This document shows, piece by piece, positions 1 through 57,041 of a stretch of 62,350 nt of DNA (position 1 is its first letter; the number at the start of each line of letters is the position of its first letter). Below the pieces are notes generated by a model. It did not search any database and was not told where the DNA came from. It saw nothing but the letters and a program-made list of their open reading frames with translations. The stretch is taken from NCBI GenBank assembly GCA_025360845.1, contig JANYBJ010000239.1, forward strand, positions 1 to 62,350, read 5' to 3'. The stretch is from a bacterium (lineage in GTDB: Bacteria > Verrucomicrobiota > Kiritimatiellia > RFP12 > UBA1067). Position numbers and translations under genes: made by a program.

Positions 1-1644
1 CACGCCGTTCACCGTGGCACCGCTGTTGTTGCCGAAATCGAGCAACTGAACGTAGTTCCTCCCTGCGGAAATCTTGGACGCACCGGCGGCTCCCGTGGAA
101 ACAACCGAGTCACTGTCCGCCACAGTCGTGATGTTCCCGGCGCCGGAAAGGCCGGCGATCGTCTGATTGGCGCCGCTCCAGATTTCCCACGTCGCACCGG
201 GAGCGATGGAGACCGTGCCGGGGCCCGTCGCATGGCTCGCGACCGACTTCAGGGTGCCGCCATTGATGATTGTGCCGCCGCTATAGGTGTTCGTCCCGAA
301 AAGCGTCTGCGTGCCAGGCCCCTTTTTGACCAAGGCGATATCGCCGTCGATCGAGCCCTCGAACCGGTGATTTTGGGCATCGCCGGTGGTGATGGCGGTG
401 AGCGTCGCACTGTAGATGCTGGCACTAGGGGACGCATCAGTGAGGTCTTCAAGGGTCGCCCCATACCAGTGAAAGGTGTTCCCGGCGTTCAGAGGGTACA
501 TCGCGATCGACGCCGTCGCGGCGGTGGCTTTGAACCTATAGGCGTAATACCCTAAGTGCCCCGGATCAGTGTCGTACATCGCCTGACTTTCCGCGCCGTT
601 GGTGAAAATCGCTTTTTCCTCACGCATGCCCCAGCCTGGATCACTGAAAATCACGGCTTCATAAATTCTTCCAACGGTGAGGTTGCTGAACGTAAGAACG
701 CCTGGGTTACCGTTGTAATAAAAATATTTCAAAAGAAGACCGTACCCACTGTCACCGCTGCTGCCGCCGCCGGCATGATCTAAAGTGACGCCGGTGAGCG
801 ACCATCCCACGCTGGCGGGCGCGGGTCCCGTTCCGGTGAGTCCCGCGGCGGTGAAGTAAACGCCGTTCACCATTGCAGCTTCGCCAGGATTATCGAAGTC
901 GAGCTTAAGGACATAGTTTTTGCTCGCGGAAATCTGGGCCGCGCCATCTGTTCCGGTGTAGACGGTGCCTCCGCTCTCGTTCCGAATCTGCCCCGTACCG
1001 TTAAGGCCGGCAACGGCCTGTCTGTCGGCTCCGAGCAGCCATGTGGTGCCGGAAGCGAGGCACAGCAGGCCAGAGCCGACCGCATCGACAGTCTTCGATC
1101 TCAAGGTCCCTCCGTTGAGATACGTTGCGCCGTTGTATTGACCGGACTGTGCCATCACGACCGTGCCGGCACCGTTGATGGTGACGCTGGCGCCCGAGAA
1201 GGTGTTGTCGTCCTGGTTGATCCGCCCGTTGAAAGTCAGCGTCTTGCCCGCCGCAACGACAAAGGTTTGGTTATTCCAAGCGTTCAAATCGGCGTTGAAA
1301 GTGAGGTTCGCTCCGATCACCGTGATGGGGGCTTCGTTCTTAGGCAATTTGATGCCCGAGATGGCGATGTCGGTGGCGCAACTGCCGTCCACGGTGAATG
1401 CGTTGTGCCCTTGGTAGCTGTTGTTATTAACGCTGCCGTTGACAATGCCGGAGCTGAAGAAAGCGCTGTTCCAGTTGCCCGCGACTAAGCCGGTCACCCA
1501 ATTGGCGGCATTCAACCAGTTGTTGTCCGTGCCGCCACCGGTCCATGTGCCATCCTGCTGCGCAAGGGCCGATCCGACGAAACCGGCTGTCAGCGCGACC
1601 GCCAGTGTGCATGTCCGAGTGATTCCTTGACTGCTTTGTTTCAT
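1..1644 (-). CDS. Autotransporter-associated beta-strand repeat surface protein; 3' end lies outside the window; paralog of 1671..4547
   Basis: Not in the ORF track because it has no stop in the window. Manual translation from ATG at 1644 (AAGGAG upstream) is open to base 1: MKQSSQGITRTCTLAVALTAGFVGSALAQQDGTWTGGGTDNNW..., with repeats LVKKGPGTQTLFGTNTYSGGTIINGGTL. Confidence 0.9.
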   Translation of the reverse strand, partial: MKQSSQGITRTCTLAVALTAGFVGSALAQQDGTWTGGGTDNNWLNAANWVTGLVAGNWNSAFFSSGIVNGSVNNNSYQGHNAFTVDGSCATDIAISGIKLPKNEAPITVIGANLTFNADLNAWNNQTFVVAAGKTLTFNGRINQDDNTFSGASVTINGAGTVVMAQSGQYNGATYLNGGTLRSKTVDAVGSGLLCLASGTTWLLGADRQAVAGLNGTGQIRNESGGTVYTGTDGAAQISASKNYVLKLDFDNPGEAAMVNGVYFTAAGLTGTGPAPASVGWSLTGVTLDHAGGGSSGDSGYGLLLKYFYYNGNPGVLTFSNLTVGRIYEAVIFSDPGWGMREEKAIFTNGAESQAMYDTDPGHLGYYAYRFKATAATASIAMYPLNAGNTFHWYGATLEDLTDASPSASIYSATLTAITTGDAQNHRFEGSIDGDIALVKKGPGTQTLFGTNTYSGGTIINGGTLKSVASHATGPGTVSIAPGATWEIWSGANQTIAGLSGAGNITTVADSDSVVSTGAAGASKISAGRNYVQLLDFGNNSGATVNGV

Positions 1645-1670
1645 ATACAGGATCTCCTTCCAATCGAGTT

Positions 1671-6095: not shown

Positions 6096-7349
6096 TCAGC
6101 GGCGCGTCGGCAGGACATCGGGGAACGGCTGGCGCGACCGGAACAGGCGGGTCGCCTCGCCGGTCAGCCACAGGTAGTGGTCGGACGGCAAGGTTCCGTA
6201 ACTCAGATAGGTGAAGCCATCACCCTTGGGCGGCGCGTTGTTGATCTTGAAGATCTGCGTGCCCTCGTCCACCTCGTCAAACATCGCCACATAGACGCAA
6301 CCAACACCCGCACGCTTGGCGGCCGCGAACTGCGACCACAGGAACACGCCGTCGCGGCGCGGGATGCCATTGCTCGCGCCCATCAAATTGCCCCAACTGA
6401 AGCCCGGAAAGACCACCGGCATGAAGGTCAGCCCGTTCTCGCGACACCACTCCGCATCCTCGCGCCAGACCGCCTCGGCACGCTGCACGCCCGCCTCGTC
6501 GCCGAACCGCCCGACGCTCCACGAGTGGATGATGTCGGCCTTGCGCAGGACCGCGTGCAGACGCTCGTCCGCCACCGTGTCGGTTTTCAGCGAGCGCCAA
6601 TAGAAAGGCACGCCCAACAGCACCGCATAGCCCTCTCCTTTGAAGAAATTGACCAGCCGTTCGCAGGCATCGAGCCCGTATTGGCGGTTGTCGTTGAACC
6701 CCATGCCCCAAAGCGCGATGATGGGCTTGCCTTTGTGACACTGCCACGCCACATCATTCGTTACGCACACCACGCCCGTTCCGACCAGATGCCGCCAGTC
6801 GGCCATCACCACCGCGTCGGCGTTGCTACCGAGGCCGGAGAGATCGTACAGCAGCGAATAGGAGCGCCCGCTCTCGGCCGCCGCCTCGCGGCAATAGCCC
6901 AGCACGCGGTCGCCCGAAGCGCGGAACGGCGCGGGCGCGAGGTCGCGGCCATAGAAGTCGGTCGGGAAGCGCTGCACGAACACGCCGTCGATCCCGTACT
7001 GCCGCATCCAGGCGAAGTGGCGGTTGACGGTGTTGCGGTTGTCGGAAGAGACGACCTCGGCGACGCCGCCATCCGCGCACGCCAGCGGCAGGCGGCAACG
7101 CTCCTCCGCTTTGACTTCGGAGACGTCGGGGAGGTAGTCGTTGACCGGCAGCCACGCGCCGCCGCGCTGGCGCAGGTAGTGGCGCCAGCCCGCCTTGGCC
7201 TGATCGTCGGGCGTGCGGAACCAGCCCTGATAGCCGCACAGCACACGCCCGTCGAGCGAGGGGTAAAGCGGAGGCGCCCCCGTCGCGGCCTGCGTTGCCG
7301 CAGTGCTGAAAACAAAGACGAGTGCTGCCCATATCGTTGTCTGAACCAT
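6096..7349 (-). CDS. Secreted glycoside hydrolase, GH71/99-like
   Basis: Signal peptide; motifs VLCGYQGWF, WMRQYGIDGVFVQRF, PVVFPGFSW.NL and YVAMFDEVDEGT. Confidence 0.75.
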   Translation of the reverse strand: MVQTTIWAALVFVFSTAATQAATGAPPLYPSLDGRVLCGYQGWFRTPDDQAKAGWRHYLRQRGGAWLPVNDYLPDVSEVKAEERCRLPLACADGGVAEVVSSDNRNTVNRHFAWMRQYGIDGVFVQRFPTDFYGRDLAPAPFRASGDRVLGYCREAAAESGRSYSLLYDLSGLGSNADAVVMADWRHLVGTGVVCVTNDVAWQCHKGKPIIALWGMGFNDNRQYGLDACERLVNFFKGEGYAVLLGVPFYWRSLKTDTVADERLHAVLRKADIIHSWSVGRFGDEAGVQRAEAVWREDAEWCRENGLTFMPVVFPGFSWGNLMGASNGIPRRDGVFLWSQFAAAKRAGVGCVYVAMFDEVDEGTQIFKINNAPPKGDGFTYLSYGTLPSDHYLWLTGEATRLFRSRQPFPDVLPTRR

Positions 7350-7552: not shown

Positions 7553-9577
7553 TCAGTAAACCTGAATCAACGTGCCCTTGTGGTCTTCCCACCCGTAGAG
7601 TTCGAGTTCCGTGATGTTGCCGTAGAAGTCGCCCGAATCCTTCGTCACGAAAATGTAGCGGAAGGCTTCCGAGCTGGTGGTCGACACCGTCGCGTAGACG
7701 CCAGCCACGCCGCCGCTGAAGGTGGCCAATGTCGTGTAAGGCGAGAGTGTCGCGCTGTTCGAGCCGCGCAATTCCGCGCCATTCGCGCGATATTCGAGTC
7801 CTGCGCGGGCACTGAACCTCACATGCCCGATGCAGTAGCGCTTGCCCAAGTCAACGCCGACCGAACTGTTACCAGGAGACACATCAGGGAAGGAGCTGAG
7901 GTCGCCGTCGAACATACGGTCGACTCCCAAGCCGAAATTGACAGTCCCGGCCGTGATCAGGCTCATGCCCGGCTTGACCGCAGTCCGATTGTCCCAACTC
8001 CGCTCAAGCCATTCGCAGCGGCGGTAGGAGACCGCATCCGAGAGCGGCCCCTCGCTGCCGTCACGGGAGTCGAGCGCGCACACTTTGTAGTAGTTCAGTT
8101 TGCCGACCTGTGCGCCGGTGTCGGTCCAGGTGCGACCGCTGACGCCGGACGCGACCGCGGTGTAAGGGCCGCCGGGGGAGGTGGCGCGATACACCCGGCC
8201 GACATCGAGGTTCAGCGAGGCGAACGTCCAGGTCAGGACAGGATAGTCATTTGTCAGGAGAGGATTGTAATTTGGAGAGAGCGCCGAGGTGATCGTCAGG
8301 CTGCTCGGAGCGAGCGGGGCTTCCGGAGCAAGGTCATACTCAAGTTCCCCTGCGTTGCCCCAGCCGCCAGGCGGCGAAACATAACGGACGTACCGGTAAG
8401 GTCCTACAGGAGATGCTAATGCGTATTCGGCCATGCCCGCGAAGCCGGGAGCCGAGGGAATGGTGTAAAGGGTGACGGCCCCGGTAAAGTCGGCGTTGTC
8501 TGCGGCTTCGAACCGTCCTCCGACCATACGCCCAGGCCCTCCATCCCAACCCTCCGGTATTCTTCGCGGCGTGTAACGGACGCCGGTGATGGTGCGTGGT
8601 GTGCCAAGGTCCAGCGCGGCCCAAGGCGCGTCGCCAGACCCTATGCCCCAATAGGTGTCAAGGAAAGTCTCGCAATCCGAATCGTACAACTTGTCGCTGG
8701 TGTACGGCGTATAACCCGACGCGCCAAAAGGTGTGCCGACTGCGGCGTTACGTGCGGAGGCCGTAAAGGTGTACCACTCCGAAGCGCCGACGTTGTTGAG
8801 CGCCCGCACGCGATACCTCGTGTCTGCGAGAAGCGTCTGCGTGTCGCGCCAGTTGGCGATGCCGGTGTTTTTGTAGAAGTCGGTCAAGAGCGTCGTGTAC
8901 TCGGACTCGTCCGACCGTTTGCGCTGAACCTCATACGCCAGCGCATCCGCCGCGACTGTCCAGAGCAGATTGGCATGCCAGTTCGGGCTTCCCGTGAACG
9001 TCATCACCGGTGTCGTCGGCGCACTGGCCAGGGGGTCGATGCCGTAGAACTCGACCTCTCCGGCATTCCCGCCATAAGAGCCCCAAGCCGTGGCGATAAA
9101 GCGCAGGTAGGTAAAGGCCCTGAGTGCGTTTGTCGTGGTTAGCGTGACGTCAATCCAGGTGGTGCCGTTCCAACCGGGAGGCGTCACATGCGAATAGAGT
9201 GTCACCGCGTCGCTGAAATCCGCCGTGTTCGCACCCTGGAAGAGCACACCGATGAAGCGGTCGGAAACCTGTCCGTCGGGTCGGCCGATGTAACGGATGC
9301 GGGTGACGATCTTGGGGGTCTGAAGCCCGTAGCCGGCCCAGGCGTTCTGATGGACCGGCCATGTGTCATTGAAGGTAGCCGTGTCCCCGTCAAAGGGTTT
9401 GTCAGGGTTGTGCGCGGCATCAAACCCCGGTGTGCCGAGTGCGACCAGCGCACCGGAGGCGTTGGTCACCGCAAACTGGGTCAGCTTCGTGGCTGTCCAG
9501 TTCTGTGCCCGGACCGCTGTGAACGGTATCAGGCTGAAACAGGCTGCCAGCGCAGCCATAATCCGATAGTTTCTCAT
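7553..9577 (-). CDS. Secreted multidomain protein with discoidin (F5/8 type C)-like and FN3-like modules
   Basis: Likely start MRNYRIMAALAACF at 9577 (the track extends to 9721). Repeated FDGD.....D...LDLG....RY..R....G..F.G.N pattern and FN3-type W...YEVQR / YYKV segments. Confidence 0.75.
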   Translation of the reverse strand: MRNYRIMAALAACFSLIPFTAVRAQNWTATKLTQFAVTNASGALVALGTPGFDAAHNPDKPFDGDTATFNDTWPVHQNAWAGYGLQTPKIVTRIRYIGRPDGQVSDRFIGVLFQGANTADFSDAVTLYSHVTPPGWNGTTWIDVTLTTTNALRAFTYLRFIATAWGSYGGNAGEVEFYGIDPLASAPTTPVMTFTGSPNWHANLLWTVAADALAYEVQRKRSDESEYTTLLTDFYKNTGIANWRDTQTLLADTRYRVRALNNVGASEWYTFTASARNAAVGTPFGASGYTPYTSDKLYDSDCETFLDTYWGIGSGDAPWAALDLGTPRTITGVRYTPRRIPEGWDGGPGRMVGGRFEAADNADFTGAVTLYTIPSAPGFAGMAEYALASPVGPYRYVRYVSPPGGWGNAGELEYDLAPEAPLAPSSLTITSALSPNYNPLLTNDYPVLTWTFASLNLDVGRVYRATSPGGPYTAVASGVSGRTWTDTGAQVGKLNYYKVCALDSRDGSEGPLSDAVSYRRCEWLERSWDNRTAVKPGMSLITAGTVNFGLGVDRMFDGDLSSFPDVSPGNSSVGVDLGKRYCIGHVRFSARAGLEYRANGAELRGSNSATLSPYTTLATFSGGVAGVYATVSTTSSEAFRYIFVTKDSGDFYGNITELELYGWEDHKGTLIQVY

Positions 9578-9647
9578 TTTTTGTTCCTTTTTTTCATAGG
9601 CAGTGCCCACACGGGCACTAACCAACAGGGTTCGCACGGAAGGCCGG

Positions 9648-12600
9648 TCACTTGGTGACGAAGCCCGCGTTACACCAGTCCGCATGGTCGCATTCAATCC
9701 CGTTTCCGGCATCGGTGACATGCAGCCTTAACCGCTTGACGCCCTCGGGAATGGCGACATCCACACCGACAGCCATTTCCGGAGACATCACGTCGGATTG
9801 GAACAGCAGGCTCTCGCCCGCAATCGCCTCCGCGGCGGCGGTTCCATCCCGGACATCGACGTAAACCTGAAAGACAACGCTGGGTTGCCTGTAATTCCGC
9901 ATGCAGTCGTCAACTCCGACGTACGCGACAAACCGTTTATAATCCGGTTTGACTTCGTAGACCAGGTCCGATGCCGCATGCACGCCCATGCCTTTTTGGA
10001 ACTTTGTCCCCAGCATCGAGAGCGGAGTCTTATTCCAAGCCAGATCGTTCTGGGCTATCGTGCCTGGAACGCCCACAGTCGCCTTGAGAGCCTTCAAATC
10101 CGAAAGATAAATATCGGGAAGCTGCGGGGCCGGCAAACCCGCACGGAAAGTGGCCGCCGACACGCCGCTTGCCTCACCGTTCAGGTAGACTCTGGCCCGG
10201 ACCATCCCCTGCTGGTTCAGTTTAAGCGGTTCTGAATAGCGGAGAGACGTTTCAGTCGGCACCGATCCGTCCAGCGTGTAACGCACCGTGGCGTTCGTCA
10301 TCCAGCCCGGCGCCCGGATCTCGACCGTCTTCTCGTTGAAGATCATGCCCTTGTCAGGGATGATGGCCGGGCTCGGCGGCAAGCACCTCACCCATTCGTT
10401 TTCAAACACGCCCTGCGGAATCAGCCGCCCTTCAGGGTCACACACCTTGAACTGAACATGCGCTGTTTCTTTCAATGACACCGGAGCCTTGAGTTCCTCG
10501 AAGTCCGTCCAAACGCCCTTTACTTTTTCTCGCTTGTAGATTTTGGCCGAGGTAAGCGCGCTCTCGACTTTCAGCGTCGCCTCTTTCAAAAAAGCTTTGG
10601 AGGCTGGCGACACCTTCGTATGGACGATGCGCACCATGGCGCAACCGTGTTTCAACGGCACGCTCACTTCCTCACCCGCTTTCAAAGGCTGCTCCCGCAG
10701 CGGCTTCCACTCGGCGTCCCCCACGTGAAGCGTCTCAACAAAACGAGCACCCTTCATCACGGTGTTTTGTGAGTTCACCGTAAGCCGGGCCTCCTGGTTT
10801 TGTCCCCCCAGCATGAGCGCAATGAGCAAGCCCCCGGGAACCTCGAAACAGTTGCCTTTCGCGCCCTTCACCTCGATCGGGAACGCCTCCAGATTCCACT
10901 TGCGGAACCGGAGGGCTTCAAACAGCAGACCGTAGTCGAGATACAACTGGTCTGCCTCGGCGTTCCCCGGCTTGATCGTATGATTGTTATAGGGCATCGG
11001 CGCGGTCATGTACGCGCCGAGGTAGAGATAACGCTGAAAGAAGTCGTGAAGGGGCACGTTTGAAGGAAGTCCCCAAGTCCAGCCCACATACGGCTTGTCC
11101 AGCGCCATGAAAGAACAAACCGAGATGCTGTGGCAATCCGACTGTCCGAACTCGTCATAAAAACCGTCGATGTTTTCGTAGAGATCCAAACGGCGATAGA
11201 GGGGATTACAGTAGATGACCTTCTCCTTCTCATGAAACAGGGGGCCGATCTTGCTCATGTATTCAACCCATCCCAAGGCCAGCGAGCCGCAGGCGGCACC
11301 CGTAACCCACGAGAGCCCGTCATCCCGTTTCCAGTTGAAGAAACGGAGATAATCGGTCCGGTCAAAGCAGACGCCGGAACTCTCCGGCAGGGCGTCCAGA
11401 TGCTTCTTGGCTTGTGCGATCAGATGGTTCTGAAAGGAGGGCACCCCGATATCCATGAGCACGCCCCGCTCCCACGCCCTGTACGGCTCGGCCTGGTCCT
11501 TCGGGAAAAGAACCGCGTCGCGCAGCTTATAAAAGACAAAGTCGTTGGCGTCTTTCCACAGGTCCTCGTCGCGGGCCGCCTTCCGCGCGGGAGGCGTCGC
11601 AAAGCTCTGGATCTTCAGGCCCAGCTCGGCCGGATTCATGTAGTTCATGACATGAAGGCCACACTCCCTCATCCTCTTGGAGTAGTTCGCCAGATTACGC
11701 AGTGACGTTGGATAAGGAGGAGCCTCCGCTCCCTCAAACCGGGCATTCGTCCACGCGTAGTCGAGATCGTTGGTGTAGGGAAGGAACATTCCCATGTAGA
11801 CATAGTCGTAGCTGGCCTTCCAGTTGAATTGCAGACCGGAGCGCAGCAGCTGATAGGCATCAACCTCCCCCTCGTATTCGGAGTAGGCCCCGTTTCCCGC
11901 GACTAGCCAGGTCGCGTCTGTTTTGGGCGAGAAAAATTGAACGTATCGCTTATGATACCAACCCAGCGCAGGCCTCCAGTCGGTGGCTTGCGAACGCAGG
12001 TACAGCACATATGAAAAGGGCTTCCCTTTTTCGATCCGGTGATTGAAGCGGTTGAACTGGACGGCGCCCGTCGGGTCCACCTGAGCAGACATGCTGATGA
12101 TCGTTCCCTCGAGCCCGTGGGCCACCATGACCGCCCGCTTCGTGTCGGCTTCACCCACCACGAAGAGGGGGACGGAAATCGCGTCACGCTGCTCGTGGGA
12201 CGTGCCGCCGAAATCAAATGTCCTCGAATTCAATTTGGCAAACTGGAGCGGGTCATCCCAGTAGTTGCGCCCGTCTCCGATGAGACTCTTAATCTCCGGA
12301 TCAGAAGCGGCCGTGCCCCAGGTGGTCCAGTAGACAGACGCTGGCGACGTGGGGATAACAACCTTGGACGAAACCTCGCAGGAGAACGGCGCTCCCGCGC
12401 CTTCGACCGTCACCTCCCAACGGATCGCGTCCCCCTCCACGGAAAAACGGTCTCTGACCGCGCAGGAATCTCCACCGCCTTCACGCTTCATCAGCCGCTT
12501 AAACTGCGCAACGCCTGCTTTTGAGAGATCAGACTCGACACCGCCAGCCGTCTTCAAGCCGGACAGGTCACTGAGCCCGGAAAATACGGACTGACCCGCG

Positions 12601-12770
12601 CCGGACTGAAAAGTCGCCTGCCCTTGGGCGTCCATTTGAAGGACCAGGTCGCCTGACCGCAGCGTCAGCGTTGCCACGGAGGCTTGCTTAACCGGTTCGG
12701 CGGCGCCCGCTGCGAAGAGCACGCCGAACAGGACCATCGTTATGACAGGTGAAAACCGCTTGATCATCAA
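9648..12770 (-). CDS. Secreted putative glycoside hydrolase with Fn3-associated and NPCBM/NEW2 C-terminal domains
   Basis: Signal peptide; VRYTLDGSVPTETS.RY (Fn3-associated); YLSDL...KGMGVHA.S.L.Y...F.A.VGVDD...DHADWCNA (NPCBM). The catalytic family was not recognised. Confidence 0.7.
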   Translation of the reverse strand: MMIKRFSPVITMVLFGVLFAAGAAEPVKQASVATLTLRSGDLVLQMDAQGQATFQSGAGQSVFSGLSDLSGLKTAGGVESDLSKAGVAQFKRLMKREGGGDSCAVRDRFSVEGDAIRWEVTVEGAGAPFSCEVSSKVVIPTSPASVYWTTWGTAASDPEIKSLIGDGRNYWDDPLQFAKLNSRTFDFGGTSHEQRDAISVPLFVVGEADTKRAVMVAHGLEGTIISMSAQVDPTGAVQFNRFNHRIEKGKPFSYVLYLRSQATDWRPALGWYHKRYVQFFSPKTDATWLVAGNGAYSEYEGEVDAYQLLRSGLQFNWKASYDYVYMGMFLPYTNDLDYAWTNARFEGAEAPPYPTSLRNLANYSKRMRECGLHVMNYMNPAELGLKIQSFATPPARKAARDEDLWKDANDFVFYKLRDAVLFPKDQAEPYRAWERGVLMDIGVPSFQNHLIAQAKKHLDALPESSGVCFDRTDYLRFFNWKRDDGLSWVTGAACGSLALGWVEYMSKIGPLFHEKEKVIYCNPLYRRLDLYENIDGFYDEFGQSDCHSISVCSFMALDKPYVGWTWGLPSNVPLHDFFQRYLYLGAYMTAPMPYNNHTIKPGNAEADQLYLDYGLLFEALRFRKWNLEAFPIEVKGAKGNCFEVPGGLLIALMLGGQNQEARLTVNSQNTVMKGARFVETLHVGDAEWKPLREQPLKAGEEVSVPLKHGCAMVRIVHTKVSPASKAFLKEATLKVESALTSAKIYKREKVKGVWTDFEELKAPVSLKETAHVQFKVCDPEGRLIPQGVFENEWVRCLPPSPAIIPDKGMIFNEKTVEIRAPGWMTNATVRYTLDGSVPTETSLRYSEPLKLNQQGMVRARVYLNGEASGVSAATFRAGLPAPQLPDIYLSDLKALKATVGVPGTIAQNDLAWNKTPLSMLGTKFQKGMGVHAASDLVYEVKPDYKRFVAYVGVDDCMRNYRQPSVVFQVYVDVRDGTAAAEAIAGESLLFQSDVMSPEMAVGVDVAIPEGVKRLRLHVTDAGNGIECDHADWCNAGFVTK

Positions 12771-12795: not shown

Positions 12796-13860
12796 CTACC
12801 ATTTCTCCAACCGTTTCAGGATGTCCGGCTGTACGGCTTCCGGCGCAGCTAGACACACGTACAAACCCTCTGGTTCCATCTCGGCAATGAACGGCTCCAA
12901 CTCGGCGAGCTGGAGATCCACGACAACGCCCTTGCCCGCGGCCTGTATCCGCTTGATCACCGGCAGCCACTGCATGATCGGCAGATCGTCGCCCACCCCC
13001 TGCACGAACTGAACAGCGTGTATCTCCGGCAGCGCCAGAATACTGTCCAAGTGCCGGATCATGCCTTTGCCGTCGAGATGGAACACAGTGTGGGTCATGT
13101 GCCGGACTTCCGCCTTCAGCGAAGGCAGATAAAACGCATCAAAATCCTCTGTCGACAGCATGGAGGTAAAATCGCAACTTGGGATATGCATCTTTCCCCG
13201 GCTCGGTATGCACATCCATGTGACCGAAAGCTGCCCGTGCTTTTTAAGGACAGCGTCGTACTGATCAAACACGGAGAGAAAACTCTTATCCGCCAAGGCG
13301 ACGGCCTCATGAACCTTTTCAGGGCAATCAAGCAGATCCATGCAAAGCACCTGCGGGTCACGCCAGTCCGCCACACAGTCGAGGCTGCCGTGCAGGTCCG
13401 TGTACCCGACCATGAAGCGTCCCTCGCATTTGTCAAGCGCGAGGCGGGTCAGCTCCCCGATCTTTTTGAAGTAGGCGTTCTCGGCGCAGAAGGCCAGCCT
13501 GTTCAAATCGTCCCAGTCGTGGATGCAATGCCGGACCCACGAGGTCACTTCGCCGAAGTCCAGCTCCGCGCCATGAAAGGCCGCAAAAACGTTAGGTCCG
13601 AGATTTGGGGAAAACACCGGGAAGGTCTCGCCGTAAAACCGCCGTCCCTCGATGGAGGCGGCGAATTGGTCCACCTGATGCTCGGCGTCGAACCAGCGCT
13701 CTTTGAGGCTCTGCCATCTTCCGTCTGCACCGGGGCCTTGGCTATACTCCGCGTTGTGGAGGGCAAACCTCACGGGCGGACGGTCAAGCATCTCCTGGCT
13801 GAACCAGGCCTCCACACGCGCCATCGCCCGCTCGAAATCCGGTTTGTTAATGAGTTCCAT
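12796..13860 (-). CDS. UroD/MetE-fold (uroporphyrinogen decarboxylase family) protein
   Basis: Likely start MELINKPDFE at 13860, overlapping the transporter stop. Motifs VGYTDLHGSLD, SCDFTSMLS.E.F..FYLP and VFHLDG. Confidence 0.7.
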   Translation of the reverse strand: MELINKPDFERAMARVEAWFSQEMLDRPPVRFALHNAEYSQGPGADGRWQSLKERWFDAEHQVDQFAASIEGRRFYGETFPVFSPNLGPNVFAAFHGAELDFGEVTSWVRHCIHDWDDLNRLAFCAENAYFKKIGELTRLALDKCEGRFMVGYTDLHGSLDCVADWRDPQVLCMDLLDCPEKVHEAVALADKSFLSVFDQYDAVLKKHGQLSVTWMCIPSRGKMHIPSCDFTSMLSTEDFDAFYLPSLKAEVRHMTHTVFHLDGKGMIRHLDSILALPEIHAVQFVQGVGDDLPIMQWLPVIKRIQAAGKGVVVDLQLAELEPFIAEMEPEGLYVCLAAPEAVQPDILKRLEKW

Positions 13861-15232
13861 AGCAATGCTCTTCCGCTCCCTCGTTCTCCGGCAAGCCGAC
13901 CAACTGGATCTCGATCTCCTCCAGCGACTTCCCTTTTGTCTCGGGGATGTATTTCCAGACAAAGACCAGAATGACAAAACAGATGACCGCATAGGCGCCG
14001 AAGGCTGAGGTGATCCCGAACCTGGCCTCGATCATCGGGAACGTCTGCAGGAGAATATAGTTCGCAGCCCACAGGCAGAGGTTCGCGATAGACATGGCTA
14101 CCCCGCGGATGCGGTTGGGAAAGATCTCGGAAAGAATGACCCAGGTCAGGCAGGCGATTGAACTGCAATAGGCCGCGATGTAGGCAAGCACGGCGATCAG
14201 AACCGGCAGTCCGGTGGCATGAACATGGAAAAGCCAAGTCAATGCGCACATGACAACCGCCATCACAGACACGCCGGTTATCAGCAGCGGCCGTCGCCCG
14301 ACCCTCTCAACCAGCAGGATCGGAATGAAGGTGCAGATGAAGTTGATCAGACCGATCAGAGACGTCTGAAAAAGCGAATCGTGTAAGCCTGCGCCGGCCT
14401 GTGAGAAAATCTTTGGAGCATACAGGAACACGGCGTTCGCACCTGATATTTGCGAGAACACTCCCAATAAGGAGCCGATGACCACAATCCTGAGCGTCCG
14501 CGGTTTGAGGATGTCTGACAGCCTGCCTTCGCACACGTGCAGGGTTTGCCCGATCACGGCCATCTCGGCCCTCGCATACGCCTCGCCGTCGATACGCGTC
14601 AGGACACGCAGCGCTTCGGCCTCCCGCCCGCTTTTGACCAGCCAGCGCGGCGTTTCCGGGACAAGGAAGAGCAGCCCGAAAAACAGGCCAGCCGGAACAA
14701 CTCCGGCAATGAACATCCACCTCCAGGCGTCATCGCCTATCCCCAGCAGAAAGTAGTTGGAATAATAGGAGGTCAAAATGCCCACGACGATCGCCAACTG
14801 ATAGAAAGACACGAACCTTCCGCGGAACCTCGTGGGTGCCGTCTCGGCCACGTAGACAGGGGCCACGCCCGACGCGGCCCCGATCGCAAGCCCGCCGAGC
14901 AGACGACACAGGATAAACGCATTGAAGGAACCTGCCCATCCCGCGCCGACGGCGGAGAGGGCGAAGAGAACCGCGGTGACAACGAGGACTTTCTTGCGGC
15001 CAAACACATCGGCCAGTTTGCCGGCAAACCCGGCACCGACGATGCAGGCAAGGATGCAACTGCTGACAGCCCAGCCGAGGCCTGCGCCGCTGAGACTGAA
15101 TACTTTCTCAAGAAACGGCAGCGTCCCCGAAACCACCGTCATGTCAAAACCAAACAGGAACCCGCCGAGAGCCGCTATCAGGCTGATGCCGATGATATAC
15201 AACAGGCTGCCAGATTTTTCAGTAAGATTCAT
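13847..15232 (-). CDS. Sugar porter family MFS transporter (XylE/AraE/GalP-like)
   Basis: ALGGFLFGFD, D.FGRK, PVYVAETAP...RG, PETPRWL, ERVGRR and PETKGKSLEEI sugar-porter signatures. Confidence 0.93.
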   Translation of the reverse strand: MNLTEKSGSLLYIIGISLIAALGGFLFGFDMTVVSGTLPFLEKVFSLSGAGLGWAVSSCILACIVGAGFAGKLADVFGRKKVLVVTAVLFALSAVGAGWAGSFNAFILCRLLGGLAIGAASGVAPVYVAETAPTRFRGRFVSFYQLAIVVGILTSYYSNYFLLGIGDDAWRWMFIAGVVPAGLFFGLLFLVPETPRWLVKSGREAEALRVLTRIDGEAYARAEMAVIGQTLHVCEGRLSDILKPRTLRIVVIGSLLGVFSQISGANAVFLYAPKIFSQAGAGLHDSLFQTSLIGLINFICTFIPILLVERVGRRPLLITGVSVMAVVMCALTWLFHVHATGLPVLIAVLAYIAAYCSSIACLTWVILSEIFPNRIRGVAMSIANLCLWAANYILLQTFPMIEARFGITSAFGAYAVICFVILVFVWKYIPETKGKSLEEIEIQLVGLPENEGAEEHCYGTH

Positions 15233-15351: not shown

Positions 15352-16326
15352 ATGAAAGCGACAAAAAAAATCACGCTTCCTTACGAAAAGGCCGGAGAGA
15401 AATGGAAGGAATATACCCGCTCGTACAAAGCGACCGTGCACCATGCTCTGAGTCTTAAGGACCGCGAACAATGGGTTCGGGCGAAAGAACTGTCTGACTT
15501 CAGGATTTTCGCCTGTGGCTGCTACACTCAGGCCTGGGGCCATTTCTGGAAGCGACGTCATCTGGAAGAGGGCGTTTACATCTATTGCGTGGCTGGGAAA
15601 GGTTACTATAAGCAGGGGAACAAAACGTGGAGCATCAGGCCGGGCGAACTTCTCTATTGCCAGCCCGGCACGCAACACGAATACGGGGCCGACGCCGCTG
15701 ACCCGTGGACCCTTTACTGGCTGCACGTCTCCGGACGGCGGAGCGGCGTGTTTGAAGAGCATCTGGGGTTGACGCGAGCGAGCCCTGTCATCCAAGTCGG
15801 AATTGTTCCAGATATCGTCGAACTGTTCATGCTGCTGTTCTCCTTGTTCACCACAGCAAGCAACAACACGAACAAGCTTGCCATCCAGTCCTGTGCCGCC
15901 GCGACTCTCAGCGCGATGGCTGTCGCAGCTCAGTCAAGCCGTGCGGCTCAAGACTATACGCAGGAGGTCACCGCCGCTTTAAAGTTCATGGAAGACTCGG
16001 TTTCCTTGCCTTTGGACGTTGCGGCAATGGCCCGTCACGCCGGCGTTTCCACGTTTCACTTCTGCCGTATTTTTAAGAAGGCCACCGGCCAGTCTCCCAT
16101 GAAGCATTTTAACCATCTCAAGGTTCGCAGGGCCTGCGGCCTTCTTGCAGGCTCGCCACTGAAAATCAAAGAGATCGCCTTTCAGCTTGGGTTTGAGGAC
16201 ACGCACTACTTTTCCAGGTTCTTCAAAAAAATCATGGGGTTCCCCCCTGAACAATATAGGCCACAAACAATCCCGAAGCCCCCAAGTAGTTTAGGGGGAC
16301 GGGGTCGGGACATGCGGTTGCGCTGA
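15352..16326 (+). CDS. AraC family transcriptional regulator
   Basis: Cupin ligand domain (IYCVAGKGYY, HEYGAD..DPWTLYWLH) plus double HTH (IKEIAFQLGFEDTHYFSRFFKK). Divergent from the transporter. Confidence 0.93.
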   Translation: MKATKKITLPYEKAGEKWKEYTRSYKATVHHALSLKDREQWVRAKELSDFRIFACGCYTQAWGHFWKRRHLEEGVYIYCVAGKGYYKQGNKTWSIRPGELLYCQPGTQHEYGADAADPWTLYWLHVSGRRSGVFEEHLGLTRASPVIQVGIVPDIVELFMLLFSLFTTASNNTNKLAIQSCAAATLSAMAVAAQSSRAAQDYTQEVTAALKFMEDSVSLPLDVAAMARHAGVSTFHFCRIFKKATGQSPMKHFNHLKVRRACGLLAGSPLKIKEIAFQLGFEDTHYFSRFFKKIMGFPPEQYRPQTIPKPPSSLGGRGRDMRLR

Positions 16327-18066: not shown

Positions 18067-18206
18067 CAGCCGAACGCTGGAACACACCCCCGGCACAATT
18101 ATCGGTAACCGCGCAATAACCGATCCTGTCTGCCGTTCTTACGCAAGTGAAACCACAACCAAATACCCTCTTATCCTTAGGCACAAAACCTGCTATTCTA
18201 ACGCGC

Positions 18207-21200
18207 GTGAAACACATATTTTTTCTTCTGTCGGGGGGACTTCTCTTTTTGTGCGGTTCGCTATGTGCCGCCGAGGTTCCGCAAGACTGGACCAACCGCG
18301 TCGAGGTGGCGGACCGTAACATGCTGGCCGCGATGAGCCTGAAGCCCGATAACGGCGAGCTGCGCATCCGCCTTCTGAACCCCGAAAACAACAGTCAGGC
18401 GGAACTGACGCTGAACACGGGCAGCACCCGCTGCCGGCTGCTCCCGTCCGCCTGCTTCCCGAAAGAGTATTCGAAGCAGCTCACGTCGCGTCCTTGCCCG
18501 GCCCTGACCAACGACCTCTGCCTGTTCACCCTCAAGCGCACCGAGGACGCCTGGCTCGCGTATGTCGACGACCAGCCGGTCCTGCGTTTGCCGGAACTCT
18601 GGTCCGGTAAGCTCGAACTCCAGCACGCCCCCGTTTCCCTGCCTGCCGGAGCCGCCAAAGACGACTACACGCAACGCCTCGGCGCGTTCAAGTTCGAGGA
18701 CAATTTTCTTGTGCCCGCAGGCTCGGAGTTCCCTCCCACGTGGGAAATCATGAGCGGCATCTGGAAACTGCACTCCGTGACCGGCTCCTTGAGCGGCGCG
18801 TCGGGCGGCTACCAGCTCGCGCGCCAGCCCAAACCCGAAAAGAGCCCGAACTTCTATTCACTCGAAGGCTACGGCACCAACGCCGTCGTGCTCACGGGCG
18901 AACCGTTTTACAGCCGCTACTCCTACCGTGCCGCGGTCCAGCACAACAGCGGCACCAACGGCATCGTCTTTCTGGCGGGCGAGCATGGCGGGTACTTCGC
19001 CTTCACGGCACGCACCGATCCGGCCTCGGACCGCCTGATCCTGGAGCTGTGGCAGCAGCCCGCCGCGACGAACGCGCCGCGCCTTCCGATCGACGCGGTG
19101 CAGACCGAGCTGCCTGCAGGCCAGTGGCTCCTGCTCGAAGTCCAAACCTTCGATGACCGCATCATTTGCCGCGCGGACAACATCGAAGTCATCCGCCGCC
19201 GCATGGGACTCCCTCCCGGCGGACGTTTCGGCTTCTATGCGAACGTGCCGGCCGGCGAGGCTACGCGTTTCGACGACGTGTCGGCGGGGTCCCACGAGGA
19301 CCGCCTTTTCGAATCGCCCGAAGACCTCGCCTTCGCGACGCGCAGCCAGACTCCCGGCGTGCAGTCGCTGCTGCGCAAAGGGACGGCCTGGACCTACTTC
19401 CCGCCGTGCGGCTCCGGCACCAACCGCTGGGAGTTCGGCGCGCAGGACTCCGGCCCGCTGCGGCAGGAGATTCAAGTGGTCGCCACCTCCGAGGCTTTCC
19501 TCTGCGGGCTCACCACCGGCGCCGCCACCTCCAATGCGCCCTCCTACCGCTTCTCCTGCGCCCAATCAAAAGACGGGCGCTCTTACACGCTGGAACAGGT
19601 CGGCGCCACCAACACGGTCACGCTCGACGCCTTCACGACCCCGAGCGGCAGCAACCGCGTCACCCTCGCCCTCGACGCGCTGCGCCCCAATGAGCTGCGC
19701 TGTTTTGCGGATGGCCGCATGGTCTGCTTCCACCGTCCCGAGAAACAGCCGGGCGGCCTCCAAAGTGTCTTCGCGGCCAACCCTTCGGATCTCTTTTTCA
19801 CCGCGCCTGTCGTCACCTCGAAAGACGCCACCATGAGCGAGCGTTTCGAAAAAAACCCGCTCTATGTGAATGATCCCTTCATGCGCCACTGGGCCTCGCC
19901 AGAAGGCCAGTGGGTGACCTTTAAGGACGGCATGACCTGGTTCAAAGGCGACATCACCGGGCCGATCAAAGTGCGTCTGCCGGTGGTCAACGGCATGGAG
20001 CTGCACCTCTGTGTCGAGGAGGGGTCCACCAACGGTTTCTGCCGTGTCGCGGTCAAAGACGATCAGATCAGCGTTTTCACGCCGGACTCCGGAACAAACG
20101 CCGCCTTCACGGTGCCCGCCGCGCAAGTCCCCGAAATCGCGTTCGACAAAACTCAGGTGCGCCTCTACACGCTTGGCATCGAAGGCTCCCTCGTGTGGCT
20201 GGGCGGAGACGATATCCTGCTGGCCAAAGCCCACGTGTCCGCTCCCTTGCGCGGCCGCAGAATGCGCATCATGGGCATGACACTCGAAAACCTCGGACGC
20301 ACCCTCGTCAAACGCGACAACGTCTTCGACACGCTCTTCACCGAATCCCTCTATAACTGGACCATCAACGGCGGCCGCTGGGAAGTCATCAACCGCTTCT
20401 TCTGTGAGCCCACCTGGTCGCACATGAACGGAGAAAGCTCCGACTCGCTCGCCGCGCTCTGGTCCAACTATATTTTCAGCGGCGACTTCAGCATCGAGTT
20501 TTACGCGGGCATGCGCATGGGCTGGTACGAACGCCCCGGCGACCTGAACTTGACGGTCATGAGCCGTTCAAACGCCACCGGCGACGGCTATACCGCCATT
20601 GCCACAGGTTGGGATCCGGATCATTCGCAGCTCTATTCGCGCCTGCTCCGCAACGGCGAGCTCATGGACATCTCCACCAAGTACCTGGTGCCGCGCGCCC
20701 GCGCCGGTAATGCCCGCCAAGGCTATCAGCCGCTGGTCGCCGCCGGGCGCGACATCCACGGCGCCTGGTACGGCATGCAGCTCCGCCGCGTCGGCAACCG
20801 GCTCCATTACATCTACGACAACGAAGAGGTTTTCGACGTCGAGGACAAAGACCCGCTGCAAAACGGCTCGCTCGGCATCTGGACCTTCTGCAATTCGATG
20901 ATGGTCGCACGCATCAAGATCGCGGCCGAGTCGATCAAGCCGCGCCCCTTCGCCTTCAAGACCATCCCCGCCGGCGTTCCGGCCGCACCCGAACCGCCTC
21001 CCGTCGCCGACTCCGGCGTCCGCATCAACGGGCGCGTGGCCCAGCCCCTCGCTCCCGATTACTGGCAGGCCTTCGACACCGTGAGCCATCCGAGTATCCG
21101 CTTCCGCCATCTCGACACGGCCCACCCCGAAATGCGCGTCACCTCCATTCTCGGCGGCGGCACCTTCCTCGTGCGCTGCGACCTGCCGCCCGCCCAGCCT

Positions 21201-23960
21201 GACAAACTGCTCGGCTGGCGCTTCGAGATCGCGCGTCATCCCAAAGGCCTCGTCAATTTCGAGTTTTCCACGGTCAAAGACGACGGCAAAGGCGGCTTCA
21301 TTCCGCTCCAAGGCTGGACCTACGTGCTGTCCGGTTCGGGTGAAACGCGCGGCCCGCGCAAGATCGCCGGCACCCTCGAAGCCTTCCCGCCTTCTGATCC
21401 TGAAGGCACCAACACCGTCTGGACGCCGGTCGAGGTCTGGGTGCCCTCCGAAATCATCCGCGCCAACCAGTCCGTGCAGATCGAAGGTTTCGGCAACCTT
21501 CAGCCCAGCGACGTACAGCAGGGCCTCAAAGGCAACCCGCCCCACGCGTGGTACGCGATCCGGAACTTCCGCGAGATCCACCGCGGCGTTCCGGTGCTCA
21601 CGGCCCCGCCGGAAAAACGCAACGAGATCGCGGCTCTCGCGCAGATCGTCAACAGCCTGCGCCCCGGCGAGCTGCAAATGGTCGAAACGCCCGAGAACCT
21701 GGATCCGCGCAAGCCCGTCATCGAATGGGCCGTGCCCGAGCTCGCCAACTTCGGTCTGCGCGCGCAGGCCGACTCCTCGATCCCCGGCTCGATCCTCGTC
21801 ACGCCCACCCACCCCTGGCCCTCGCCGGTGCTGCCGCCCAACCGCGTGCTCACCGACGCGCAGCCCGCGCCGTTCGTCACCGAGGGCAACAGCATCCGCG
21901 TGTTGGTGCCCTTCGAGATTCTCCAGCCCGGGCGCATGACCCTCGCGCTCGAACTTTCCGACGGACGCTTCTTCCGCCAGGTCGTCTCCATGCGCCCGCT
22001 CGAAGAGGCGAACCACCCGCCGGTCTTGCTCAAGCTCGAAATGCCCGAAGGCGGCATCCAGACCTTCGAGGCCCGCCCCGGCGACGCCGCCCCCTATCAG
22101 ACGGGCGCAAAGGCCTCCATCGATTATTCCGACCCGGTGCATGGCGGCGTGCTGAAATTCGAGAACGGCGGCGTCTACGGCCGCCGACTCGACGGCCTGC
22201 TCTGCAAACAGTTCAACCCCACGGCCACCCCGCTCATTCAGTTCCGCTACAAAGGCGACCCCATGTCCGTCGTCTCCCTCGCCTTCGGCACGTACGGCTT
22301 CACGTTCTCCGAGGTCTTCAACACCCACGTGCGTTTCGGCGGAGGCGTGGCCGCGCCCATGGACAATACGTGGCACATCTGGACCGGCATCCCCTTCGAC
22401 AGCGTCGGCACGATGCCTCTGACCCAGCGCACGACCATACCTCCGGGCGACCTCCGTTTCGCCTCGCGCAGCGACCGCGACCAGACCGGCCTGCACAGCA
22501 CCCTGCGCATCGATGATGTCGCCTGCGGCCCCGCCGTCGGCCCCAACCGCACCTTCGCCTTCAAAGCCGACTACACAGACCCCGACGGCATCGCCGAAGT
22601 GGCCTATGCGATTATCCAAGGTCCGGTCGCCTTCGACAACCGCACCGAAGCGGAGAAGCAGAAGGTCGTCTGGGTGCCCGCCAAAAACAGCGAGGTCATG
22701 CAGCCTGATCTCGCGGCCGTTCCCGATGGCATCCACCACCTCATCGTCCGCGCCCGCGACAAGCGCAACCTCTGGTCCCTGCCGGCGGACATGCCCTTTA
22801 TGCTCGACCGCGTCGCGCCCGTCGTCACCCACACCGTCAACGCCGTCGAGAAGTTCAACGGCAGCAGCCTCACGCTCACCATCGCCGATCCCGTCTCGCC
22901 TCCGGTGATCAACACGATCCGCTTCACCTGCCTCGGCGCGCCGCTCAACCTGGCCACCGACAACGGCTCTTGCGCGATCGGCCAAGGCACCGTCACCTAT
23001 GAACTGGACTGGGTCTGGCTGCTGCGCAACCAGCTCAAAGCCGCCAAAAACGGCGACGTGCTGCCGCTCACGGTCGATGGCGTCACCGACGCCGCAGGCA
23101 ACGCGATCCCGGCGATGAAGATCGACCTGTCCCTCAACCTCGAGGCCGACAAGCGCCCGCCCACCGTGCTGCCGCTGGGCAAGACCGACAACGTGCTCGT
23201 GTCCGAGCTCTCGCTCCCCGCGCTCGCGCCGTTCTTCACGGAATCGAAGAACGTCGCGGCCGCGCCGGTGGCGACTCCGGAAGGCAACGTCGTCGAAATC
23301 ACACCCAACGGCGAAGGCAACGCCTTCATCCAGCACGCCTTCGCGCCTGCCTGGGATCCGGATAAGTACCCCTATCTGGCCCTCTCGTTCCGCACCATGG
23401 ACGCCGCCGGCGGAGTCAAGCCGTTCACGCTGGCCTTTAACACCGGACCGCGCCGTCCCCGCGGCATCAAGGACGCCCACACAATGAATTTCACCGACAC
23501 CAATCACCTCGCCTTTGTGACCGGCGAAACCTCCCGCACGCCCGGAGAGTGGAACGACGTGATCATCAACGTGCGCGACTTCCTTCGCGCCGAGACCGAG
23601 GAGCACAAGGACACCCCCGACCTGACCTTCCTTTCCCTCTTCTTCTCGCCCAAGGCCAAAGGAAACAAGATCCAAATCCGTTCCCTCGCCATCCTCGCGC
23701 CGTGGAACTCCGACCACCTGATCCCCATCAAAGCCTATGACCTCAGCAGCATCAAGAGTCTCGTCTGGCAAGGCGGCGAGTCCGAGAACACCGGCCTGCG
23801 CCCGGCCAATCTGGCGTTGCCCGCAAATGATCCGAACTGGTTCCGCTTCCGCATCAGCGACCGCCGCGGCAACCTCACCGACACCTGGATGCTTCCCATT
23901 CCTCCCGGCTCCTCGAAAACCAAAGCCAACCTGCCCGCCTTTGAACCCGTAACCTTTTAA
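18207..23960 (+). CDS. Very large exported hypothetical protein (~1,920 aa) with probable concanavalin/LamG-like beta-sandwich domains
   Basis: Uninterrupted ORF with strong GC3 codon bias. GTG at 18207 gives the signal peptide MKHIFFLLSGGLLFLCGSLCA (track start 18147). Patterns such as GRFGFY...TRFDDV and GSLGIWTF....MVARIKI. Confidence 0.8.
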   Translation: MKHIFFLLSGGLLFLCGSLCAAEVPQDWTNRVEVADRNMLAAMSLKPDNGELRIRLLNPENNSQAELTLNTGSTRCRLLPSACFPKEYSKQLTSRPCPALTNDLCLFTLKRTEDAWLAYVDDQPVLRLPELWSGKLELQHAPVSLPAGAAKDDYTQRLGAFKFEDNFLVPAGSEFPPTWEIMSGIWKLHSVTGSLSGASGGYQLARQPKPEKSPNFYSLEGYGTNAVVLTGEPFYSRYSYRAAVQHNSGTNGIVFLAGEHGGYFAFTARTDPASDRLILELWQQPAATNAPRLPIDAVQTELPAGQWLLLEVQTFDDRIICRADNIEVIRRRMGLPPGGRFGFYANVPAGEATRFDDVSAGSHEDRLFESPEDLAFATRSQTPGVQSLLRKGTAWTYFPPCGSGTNRWEFGAQDSGPLRQEIQVVATSEAFLCGLTTGAATSNAPSYRFSCAQSKDGRSYTLEQVGATNTVTLDAFTTPSGSNRVTLALDALRPNELRCFADGRMVCFHRPEKQPGGLQSVFAANPSDLFFTAPVVTSKDATMSERFEKNPLYVNDPFMRHWASPEGQWVTFKDGMTWFKGDITGPIKVRLPVVNGMELHLCVEEGSTNGFCRVAVKDDQISVFTPDSGTNAAFTVPAAQVPEIAFDKTQVRLYTLGIEGSLVWLGGDDILLAKAHVSAPLRGRRMRIMGMTLENLGRTLVKRDNVFDTLFTESLYNWTINGGRWEVINRFFCEPTWSHMNGESSDSLAALWSNYIFSGDFSIEFYAGMRMGWYERPGDLNLTVMSRSNATGDGYTAIATGWDPDHSQLYSRLLRNGELMDISTKYLVPRARAGNARQGYQPLVAAGRDIHGAWYGMQLRRVGNRLHYIYDNEEVFDVEDKDPLQNGSLGIWTFCNSMMVARIKIAAESIKPRPFAFKTIPAGVPAAPEPPPVADSGVRINGRVAQPLAPDYWQAFDTVSHPSIRFRHLDTAHPEMRVTSILGGGTFLVRCDLPPAQPDKLLGWRFEIARHPKGLVNFEFSTVKDDGKGGFIPLQGWTYVLSGSGETRGPRKIAGTLEAFPPSDPEGTNTVWTPVEVWVPSEIIRANQSVQIEGFGNLQPSDVQQGLKGNPPHAWYAIRNFREIHRGVPVLTAPPEKRNEIAALAQIVNSLRPGELQMVETPENLDPRKPVIEWAVPELANFGLRAQADSSIPGSILVTPTHPWPSPVLPPNRVLTDAQPAPFVTEGNSIRVLVPFEILQPGRMTLALELSDGRFFRQVVSMRPLEEANHPPVLLKLEMPEGGIQTFEARPGDAAPYQTGAKASIDYSDPVHGGVLKFENGGVYGRRLDGLLCKQFNPTATPLIQFRYKGDPMSVVSLAFGTYGFTFSEVFNTHVRFGGGVAAPMDNTWHIWTGIPFDSVGTMPLTQRTTIPPGDLRFASRSDRDQTGLHSTLRIDDVACGPAVGPNRTFAFKADYTDPDGIAEVAYAIIQGPVAFDNRTEAEKQKVVWVPAKNSEVMQPDLAAVPDGIHHLIVRARDKRNLWSLPADMPFMLDRVAPVVTHTVNAVEKFNGSSLTLTIADPVSPPVINTIRFTCLGAPLNLATDNGSCAIGQGTVTYELDWVWLLRNQLKAAKNGDVLPLTVDGVTDAAGNAIPAMKIDLSLNLEADKRPPTVLPLGKTDNVLVSELSLPALAPFFTESKNVAAAPVATPEGNVVEITPNGEGNAFIQHAFAPAWDPDKYPYLALSFRTMDAAGGVKPFTLAFNTGPRRPRGIKDAHTMNFTDTNHLAFVTGETSRTPGEWNDVIINVRDFLRAETEEHKDTPDLTFLSLFFSPKAKGNKIQIRSLAILAPWNSDHLIPIKAYDLSSIKSLVWQGGESENTGLRPANLALPANDPNWFRFRISDRRGNLTDTWMLPIPPGSSKTKANLPAFEPVTF

Positions 23961-23966
23961 CCTCTT

Positions 23967-24425
23967 ATGACACGCATCACCATCCCCCAACTGGACGCCA
24001 ACCTGGTCGACGTCACCGTCACCCGTTGGCGTAAAGCCATCGGCGACACCGTCGCCGCAGGCGAAATACTGGCGGAGCTTACCACCGACAAGGCGGTGTA
24101 TGAACTCGAAGCGCCCGCGGCTGGCTTGCTGCTCGCCGTCTACGCCGCCGAAAAGAGCGTCGTGCCCACCGGCTTCATCGTCGGACTCATCGGCACGCCC
24201 GGCGAAGACGACCCGGAGGCCGAAGCCGCGAACGCGGATCTGATGCTCGCCTACCGCGGGCCTGCCGCCGCGCCGGCTCCTTCACGTGACCGCGGCGCAC
24301 GCGTACGGGCCACGCCCCGGGCGCGCCGCCTCGCGCAAGACAAGGGCATCGACCTCGCCAAGGTCCAGTCCGAGACCGGCGCTGAGGTCATCGACGAGGC
24401 CGTCCTTTCCGCCTATCTTAAATAG
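23967..24425 (+). CDS. Stand-alone lipoyl domain + E3-binding (PSBD) protein
   Basis: Lipoyl motif ELTTDKAVYELEAP and PSBD motif VRATPRARRLAQDKGIDL. No acyltransferase core. Confidence 0.85.
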   Translation: MTRITIPQLDANLVDVTVTRWRKAIGDTVAAGEILAELTTDKAVYELEAPAAGLLLAVYAAEKSVVPTGFIVGLIGTPGEDDPEAEAANADLMLAYRGPAAAPAPSRDRGARVRATPRARRLAQDKGIDLAKVQSETGAEVIDEAVLSAYLK

Positions 24426-56963: not shown

Positions 56964-56987
56964 CAATTGGACAAAAAGTAAATGAAG

Positions 56988-57041
56988 GGTAGGGACGGTT
57001 CCCCGAACCGTCCGCGGACGCCTCGGGGAGGCGTCCCTACC
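56988..57041. repeat. REP doublet (GTAG class) forming a composite hairpin
   Basis: Terminal GGTAGGGACG / CGTCCCTACC inverted repeat enclosing two internal hairpins, GGACGGTTCCCCGAACCGTCC and GGACGCCTCGGGGAGGCGTCC. Confidence 0.8.

Follow-up and report, generated by a model that had tools for sequence, protein, structure and literature searches.

A UroD-fold protein encoded with a sugar porter in a Kiritimatiellia genome as a candidate corrinoid-dependent sugar O-demethylase

We analysed a contig of 62,350 nucleotides (nt) from a bacterium of the class Kiritimatiellia (JANYBJ010000239.1, assembly GCA_025360845.1), which is referred to here at its full length as the window. Its minus strand carries, at 12796..13860, a gene for a protein of 354 amino acids (aa) with the UroD/MtaA fold, which belongs to an unnamed family and which we denote by P0001. 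We propose P0001 as a candidate for the substrate-specific methyltransferase (MT I) of a corrinoid-dependent O-demethylase acting on a methylated sugar or a sugar-like compound, a reading to which we assign a probability of roughly 50%. That P0001 depends on a corrinoid in some way appears likely. O-methyl-galactose is perhaps its substrate, a leading guess taken solely from the galactose lean of the neighbouring genes.

A UroD fold without the signatures of HemE or MtaA

The AlphaFold model of P0001 (pLDDT 95.8) is a UroD-type (beta/alpha)8 barrel. In structure comparison HemE (Z 20.1) and MtaA (Z 20.0) were followed by the next family at 11.7, the Foldseek E value was 5e-10, and the best-ranked fold matches were HemE structures. 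By sequence, no Pfam model, NCBIfam model or PDB sequence was matched. PF01208, the family in which a previous reading of the DNA (the sequence-only reading) had placed the protein, was not reached by P0001 at E 0.01, and 9 of 134 family members matched it weakly at that threshold (best 1e-6). Since PF01208 is not matched, the UroD assignment is based on the fold and on profile-profile comparison; the previous placement holds for the fold but not for the Pfam model itself.

Profile alignment with HH-suite placed H261-L-D263-G264 on the H-x-C-G of the URO-D/MtaA-like proteins of the same genome (probability 98.7, E 1.7e-16), which bears out the earlier observation of H-x-D (HLDG) where H-x-C is expected. 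H-x-D-G was present in all 134 family members. D230, H261, D263 and G264 are invariant in the family, while W108, D155, D161, H270 and Q284 are nearly so. The RQAGR motif, already noted as missing, was found neither in P0001 nor in any of the relatives retrieved. The C-terminal cysteine ligand of MtaA was likewise not found, and a G-C/G-H motif near strand 8 occurs in just 3 of the 134 members. The absence of both RQAGR and this cysteine argues that P0001 is neither HemE nor MtaA. P0001 matched neither TIGR01464 (HemE) nor TIGR01463 (MtaA/MtbA/CmuA); other URO-D proteins of the genome match the latter, below its cut-off.

The family comprises 1,244 clusters at 50% identity (E up to 1e-10), with up to 8 copies per genome. 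The Atlas cluster labels for P0001 were 'hypothetical' and 'trimethylamine corrinoid protein 2 family'. The second was rejected, as P0001 has no B12-binding domain and the phrase was not found in the literature searched. The CFA/I fimbrial fusions that were the top PDB matches of the profile search were dismissed as spurious repeats. No longer, fused forms of the family turned up in a search for them, which counts as weak evidence. In the fusion protein P0262 the extra domain has the metallo-beta-lactamase fold; it is not a corrinoid domain.

Corrinoid partners in the genome and across lineages

No corrinoid protein or activator gene was found within the window. The sequence-only reading had stated as much for the surroundings of P0001, but both genes are present on other contigs of the genome. 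Partners that lie elsewhere and are co-regulated had been named as evidence that would speak against that reading, and the first half of this, their location elsewhere, is what was found. The genome encodes a single RACo activator (C301:137-1810) and only one stand-alone corrinoid protein (C205:6020-6646). Two of its methyltransferases likewise stand alone, a pterin-binding one next to FolD (C301:40875-41729) and one for homocysteine (contig C223). It also holds 19 PF01208 proteins, none of them with RQAGR, besides P0001 and a 50%-identical paralog of P0001 on contig C174. The assembly, which is 92% complete, yielded no MtaB, Fhs or acetyl-CoA synthase. Of the 7 sugar porter genes in the genome, 4 are immediately adjacent to a UroD-fold gene (rough chance 3e-7).

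The family tracks these partners. Across four lineage samples with backgrounds of 6-68%, RACo was detected in 57 of 58 family-bearing genomes. These were 12/12 against a background of 28/41 among 41 relatives, 9/9 against 65/201 in the class of a Terracidiphilus genome, 34/35 against 113/300 in the class of a Mageeibacillus genome (Fisher p 3e-15, a value overstated by kinship) and 2/2 against 12/201 in the class of a Pirellulales genome. A separate genome set, chosen by the protein, gave 13/15. All three family-bearing genomes that were RACo-negative have a stand-alone corrinoid protein. Genomes bearing UxaE were taken as a control for the 'anaerobic glycan specialist'. UxaE was found in 11/35 family-bearing and 11/265 other genomes, and UxaE genomes without the family had RACo at the background rate (4/11). 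Among the 41 relatives, a free corrinoid protein was present in 27 of the 29 with any URO-D protein and in 0 of the 12 without, in which weaker corrinoid matches fell mostly within long, methionine-synthase-sized frames.

Two genomes titled Akkermansia (L001, L006; G041, G046) share the porter-enzyme pair and the corrinoid-protein locus of the source genome. They therefore look like mixed or wrongly titled bins from the group of that genome. Two Akkermansia-titled genomes lack RACo, but as they have this locus they were not counted as counter-examples. The RACo match in another genome (G049, C16:153357-154161) is in three pieces, perhaps through a frameshift or long-read error.

The complex predicted for P0001 with the corrinoid protein of C205 scored 0.85, compared to 0.00 for the best of 3 controls; 58 of 80 solved complexes attain the mark for this score, as do 2 of 110 mismatched pairs. 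The prediction runs shared at least 83% of the contacts, and the partner pLDDT was at least 88. On the side of P0001, the predicted interface comprises residues 108, 169-178, 234-239, 269 and 288-292, which adjoin the conserved residues, and on the side of the carrier, the cap and the cobalt-binding D-x-H-x-x-G region.

Two family members are located in corrinoid operons, both known from gene tables only. The gene of P0054 (71% identical to P0001) lies in the order porter, RACo fragment, AraC, corrinoid protein, MtaB, P0054, PhyH, URO-D, GalK and GalM, and that of P0137 (39% identical) in the order corrinoid protein, DUF1638, URO-D, RACo, URO-D and P0137.

The sequence-only reading had also implied that an enzyme lacking H-x-C works without a corrinoid, and this is not borne out by the presence of the partners in the genome and their co-occurrence with the family in four lineages. 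Moreover, CdmB, a characterised MT I, has no zinc, so that the missing H-x-C is compatible with corrinoid chemistry (PMC13222342).

A few features of these corrinoid loci were recorded on the side. The corrinoid protein gene of C205 is followed by genes for a 455-aa MtaA-like protein and a CobW-like GTPase (G000:C205:3529-6646; L051 530-3647), an order that is kept in several relatives. The 455-aa protein lacks the histidine of H-x-C and ends in a thioredoxin-like C-x-x-C domain; it could be a methyl sink for thiol or sulfide methylation. The P0054 locus includes two genes of the PhyH (2-oxoglutarate/Fe dioxygenase) family, which could represent an oxygen-dependent counterpart for the same job. 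Genes for PF12831 FAD-dependent oxidoreductases are found directly beside family members from distant phyla (L069, L157, L158, L159, L161 and the P0137 locus).

A conserved pair with a sugar porter

The first gene of the unit that includes P0001 encodes a 461-aa MFS sugar porter (13847..15232, minus strand; PF00083 E 4e-101, TIGR00879 above cut-off). Its stop and the start of P0001 share 14 nt, as the positions of both open reading frames had previously indicated. The ATG of P0001 at 13860 is backed by alignments that begin at residue 1 with more than 100 relatives (68-82% identity). The family gene is also immediately preceded by a porter in L001, L002, L003, L009, L047 and L091, and that of L002, a Kiritimatiellaeota bin, is 87% identical to the porter in the window. 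The two genes overlap in the nearest relatives (1 nt in L001, 10 nt in L002 and 1 nt in L003), whereas gaps were found in L009 (22 nt), L091 (15 nt) and L047 (84 nt). Thus, the gene pair is conserved, while the overlap is restricted to the nearest clade, and translational coupling of porter and enzyme is plausible as an ordinary feature.

Close relatives are mostly located amid sugar porters, TonB-type receptors, LacI/AraC regulators and other URO-D genes, with hydrolase genes of the melibiase (alpha-galactosidase-like), GH2, GH31, GH59, GH95 and GH127 types around them. These neighbourhoods support the earlier suggestion of a cytoplasmic enzyme that acts on what the porter imports. Among 40 Clostridia-class loci, a second UroD-type gene was present in 14 and a corrinoid gene in none. 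The neighbours there include class II aldolases, isomerase-type barrels, ThuA and Gfo/Idh/MocA enzymes.

Weighing of the evidence and of alternative explanations

Several points weigh against P0001 being a sugar-demethylating MT I. None of the 86 family loci for which DNA was available (partly redundant) has corrinoid genes near the family gene, whereas known MT I genes are usually clustered with their partners (PMC10989822). Close relatives in L011, L012, L089 and L200 have no clear sugar context. The only characterised MT I reached by the family profile, CdmB, was matched weakly (E 0.9). With neither Fhs nor acetyl-CoA synthase detected in the 92%-complete genome, a sink for a large methyl flux is not evident. 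The stand-alone corrinoid protein, activator and methyltransferases are furthermore all the parts of a split methionine synthase, as known from Phaeobacter (PMC5764234), and would thus have a housekeeping role without P0001. This lowers the weight of the co-occurrence, but it leaves the two operons, the failed UxaE control and the docking score unexplained. The p-values are overstated, because kin are not independent and most of the genomes are incomplete bins. The complex score expresses the confidence of a model; it could stem from UroD-type barrels fitting corrinoid proteins in general, or from resemblance to other methyltransferase-corrinoid pairs, and the predicted docking is silent on the direction of methyl transfer.

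There is a minor but real chance that P0001 is a corrinoid-dependent MT I for some other substrate, such as an N- or S-methylated sugar derivative, a methoxylated aromatic from plant glycans or a small alkyl ether, which may enter via the porter or by another route. The corrinoid evidence fits this equally well, the characterised MT I of the superfamily all act on aromatics or haloalkanes (PMC13222342), and some close relatives lie outside sugar loci. Yet such a substrate would not lead one to expect sugar porters, galactosidase-like hydrolases and GalK/GalM as recurrent neighbours, nor the polar conserved residues (D, H, Q, R), which differ from the aromatic, metal-free cavity of CdmB. We regard it as unlikely that P0001 is instead a metal enzyme that works in sugar catabolism without a corrinoid (as a decarboxylase, epimerase, lyase or hydrolase), the kind of role toward which the sequence-only reading leaned, with the co-occurrence arising only because the family and the corrinoid genes both mark anaerobic glycan degraders that have a split methionine synthase. 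Such a role would agree with the absence of corrinoid genes near most members, with UroD itself being a decarboxylase that needs no cofactor, with the enzymes neighbouring the Clostridia genes and with the co-occurrence of the family and UxaE. It is opposed by the RACo link across four lineages, one of which has a background of 6%, by the UxaE control, which does not reproduce that link, and by the two corrinoid operons and the contrast between complex scores. Of the chemistries that had been offered for the enzyme, the evidence favours demethylation, whereas hydrolysis or lyase chemistry gained no positive support.

The reverse direction, in which P0001 would act as an MT II like MtaA and pass a methyl group from the methylated corrinoid protein to a thiol, a sugar hydroxyl or a similar acceptor, is improbable. 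MtaA is structurally as similar as HemE, the gene order corrinoid protein-MtaB-P0054 is reminiscent of mtaC-mtaB with an MtaA added, and the predicted docking would suit either direction. However, P0001 has neither of the thiolates that serve as zinc ligands in MtaA; the first is replaced by aspartate, and the second is the one near strand 8. In addition, the genome has other acceptor-side enzymes and no MtaB, and the locus is catabolic, combining import with hydrolysis. The chance that P0001 is the uroporphyrinogen decarboxylase of the haem pathway is practically nil; although HemE structures head its fold matches, it shares 10-14% identity with HemE, lacks RQAGR and matches to PF01208 and TIGR01464, and has a sugar-locus context and a copy number of up to 8 per genome.

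A possible pathway for sugar O-demethylation

For a corrinoid-dependent MT I acting on a methylated sugar, the following course can be envisaged. The sugar would be freed by the secreted glycoside-hydrolase-like protein encoded next to P0001 and imported by the porter, as the gene context suggests. It would then be bound in the barrel cavity of P0001, whose lining residues are D230, H261, D263, H270 and Q284. A metal site with hard O/N ligands, or else an acid site, might serve there to activate the ether oxygen rather than a thiol. In MtaA the zinc site is rich in thiolates and activates a thiol as the acceptor, while an Asp/His site would suit activation of the leaving oxygen. The free corrinoid protein of C205 is predicted to dock on the barrel face, upon which its Co(I) would take the methyl group. 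From there the methyl group may pass to homocysteine or tetrahydrofolate via the stand-alone homocysteine and pterin methyltransferases, with the cobalt re-reduced by RACo, and the freed sugar would enter ordinary catabolism. The metal, the substrate, the direction of transfer and the fate of the methyl group in this course are those that we infer.

More broadly, we tentatively suggest a hub-and-spoke arrangement in anaerobic glycan degraders of several phyla. One free B12 carrier and its activator, shared with methionine synthesis, would serve many UroD-fold methyltransferases encoded beside sugar importers (about 20 paralogs on the single hub in the source genome), and the P0001 family would be one of these spokes, cleaving the alkyl methyl ether bond in a sugar of the O-methyl-galactose type.

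Other genes of the locus and of the window

Divergent from the unit and upstream of the porter, an AraC-family gene with an AraC_binding sugar-binding domain (15352..16326, plus strand) probably encodes the regulator of the porter-P0001 unit; AraC genes related to it are also found beside the family gene in L008 and L069. Downstream of P0001 by 25 nt, on the same strand, lies a gene for a 1040-aa protein (9648..12770) with a signal-like N-terminal segment. It consists of a glycoside-hydrolase-like N-terminal part, to which the nearest Atlas clusters are DUF6259 and GH123-like, an Fn3 domain and a C-terminal NPCBM (CBM51-type) domain. From this domain content it is probably a glycan-releasing enzyme. 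A 39%-identical paralog of it adjoins the P0001 paralog on C174, and this locus (C174:26836-35520; L052), in which the P0001 paralog is flanked by the 1040-aa-gene paralog and a PF01208 gene, followed by GH31 and sodium:solute symporter genes, is a duplicated version of the P0001 module. Two further co-directional, carbohydrate-related genes on the minus strand, for an F5/8-domain protein (7553-9721) and a GH99-like protein (6096-7349), possibly belong to the same locus as P0001 (6096..9721). Promoter and terminator scans gave no signal beyond chance level.

A second UroD-fold gene of the window (56982-58082, plus strand; PF01208 E 6e-23) has the motif H-C-D-G; it is preceded by a gene for a di-haem hydrazine-synthase-alpha-like protein and followed by one for a RhaT-type symporter, which makes another transporter and UroD pair. 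Elsewhere, a tandem pair of autotransporter-repeat proteins with almost identical N-termini is encoded at 1-4547 (minus strand). A 1937-aa protein with no confident Pfam match is encoded at 18147-24425 (plus strand), together with a following 152-aa protein that resembles a lipoyl domain plus an E3-binding domain only.

Relation to known systems and significance

The MT I enzymes OdmB and VdmB of Acetobacterium dehalogenans, MtvB of Moorella, MtoB and CdmB (PDB 9RUI) belong to the UroD superfamily, and no metal is present in the site of CdmB (PMC13222342). P0001 resembles them in being a UroD-superfamily barrel without the zinc triad of MtaA, and in the presence of a corrinoid protein with which docking is predicted, an activating enzyme and a pterin-type methyltransferase in its genome. 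On the other hand, it is very distant from them in sequence, is seldom clustered with its partners and is found in sugar import and hydrolysis loci, and their substrates are aryl methyl ethers and haloalkanes, unlike the sugar proposed here. With the methylcobamide:CoM methyltransferases MtaA/MtbA (PDB 4AY7) it shares the fold (Z 20.0 over 298 residues, root mean square deviation 3.5 A) and the place of H-x-[C/D]-G, but it has aspartate for the first cysteine ligand, no C-terminal cysteine ligand and no TIGR01463 match, and the opposite direction is proposed for it. From HemE, with which the fold is common (Z 20.1), it differs in motif, identity, family model and context.

As for the hub, Phaeobacter has a split methionine synthase with a RamA-like activator (PMC5764234), and Ruegeria uses its split methionine synthase for glycine betaine demethylation via MtgB/MtgC/MtgD (PMC12478193). 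The source genome similarly has a separate corrinoid protein, pterin and homocysteine methyltransferases and RACo. Ruegeria thus provides a precedent for a donor-specific methyltransferase that plugs into the corrinoid protein of methionine synthase, although its MtgB takes an N-methyl donor, whereas P0001 has the UroD fold, a sugar locus and about 20 paralogs. In marine Bacteroidetes, 6-O-methyl-galactose is demethylated by a cytochrome P450 (PMC6292453). The job proposed for P0001, unblocking a methylated sugar for catabolism, is the same, but the P450 needs oxygen, releases formaldehyde and has an unrelated fold. We found no B12-dependent sugar demethylase described in the open literature, subscription journals being outside this coverage. 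The architecture of MT I, corrinoid protein, activator and second methyltransferase is known; the proposed sugar substrate class appears to be new.

In gut and sea alike, methylated sugars are resistant to breakdown by microbes, and the demethylating enzyme described for them is the oxygen-dependent P450 (PMC6292453). The family of P0001 is large and lacks a Pfam model, its members being annotated as hypothetical or, incorrectly, as a corrinoid protein, and all the proposed components can be named from one genome, which makes P0001 a directly assayable candidate. If the proposal is true, P0001 would be the first oxygen-free sugar O-demethylase, which would explain the 10-38 'uroporphyrinogen decarboxylase' paralogs in such genomes and would give anaerobes of peat, sediments, digesters and guts a route to handle methylated sugars.

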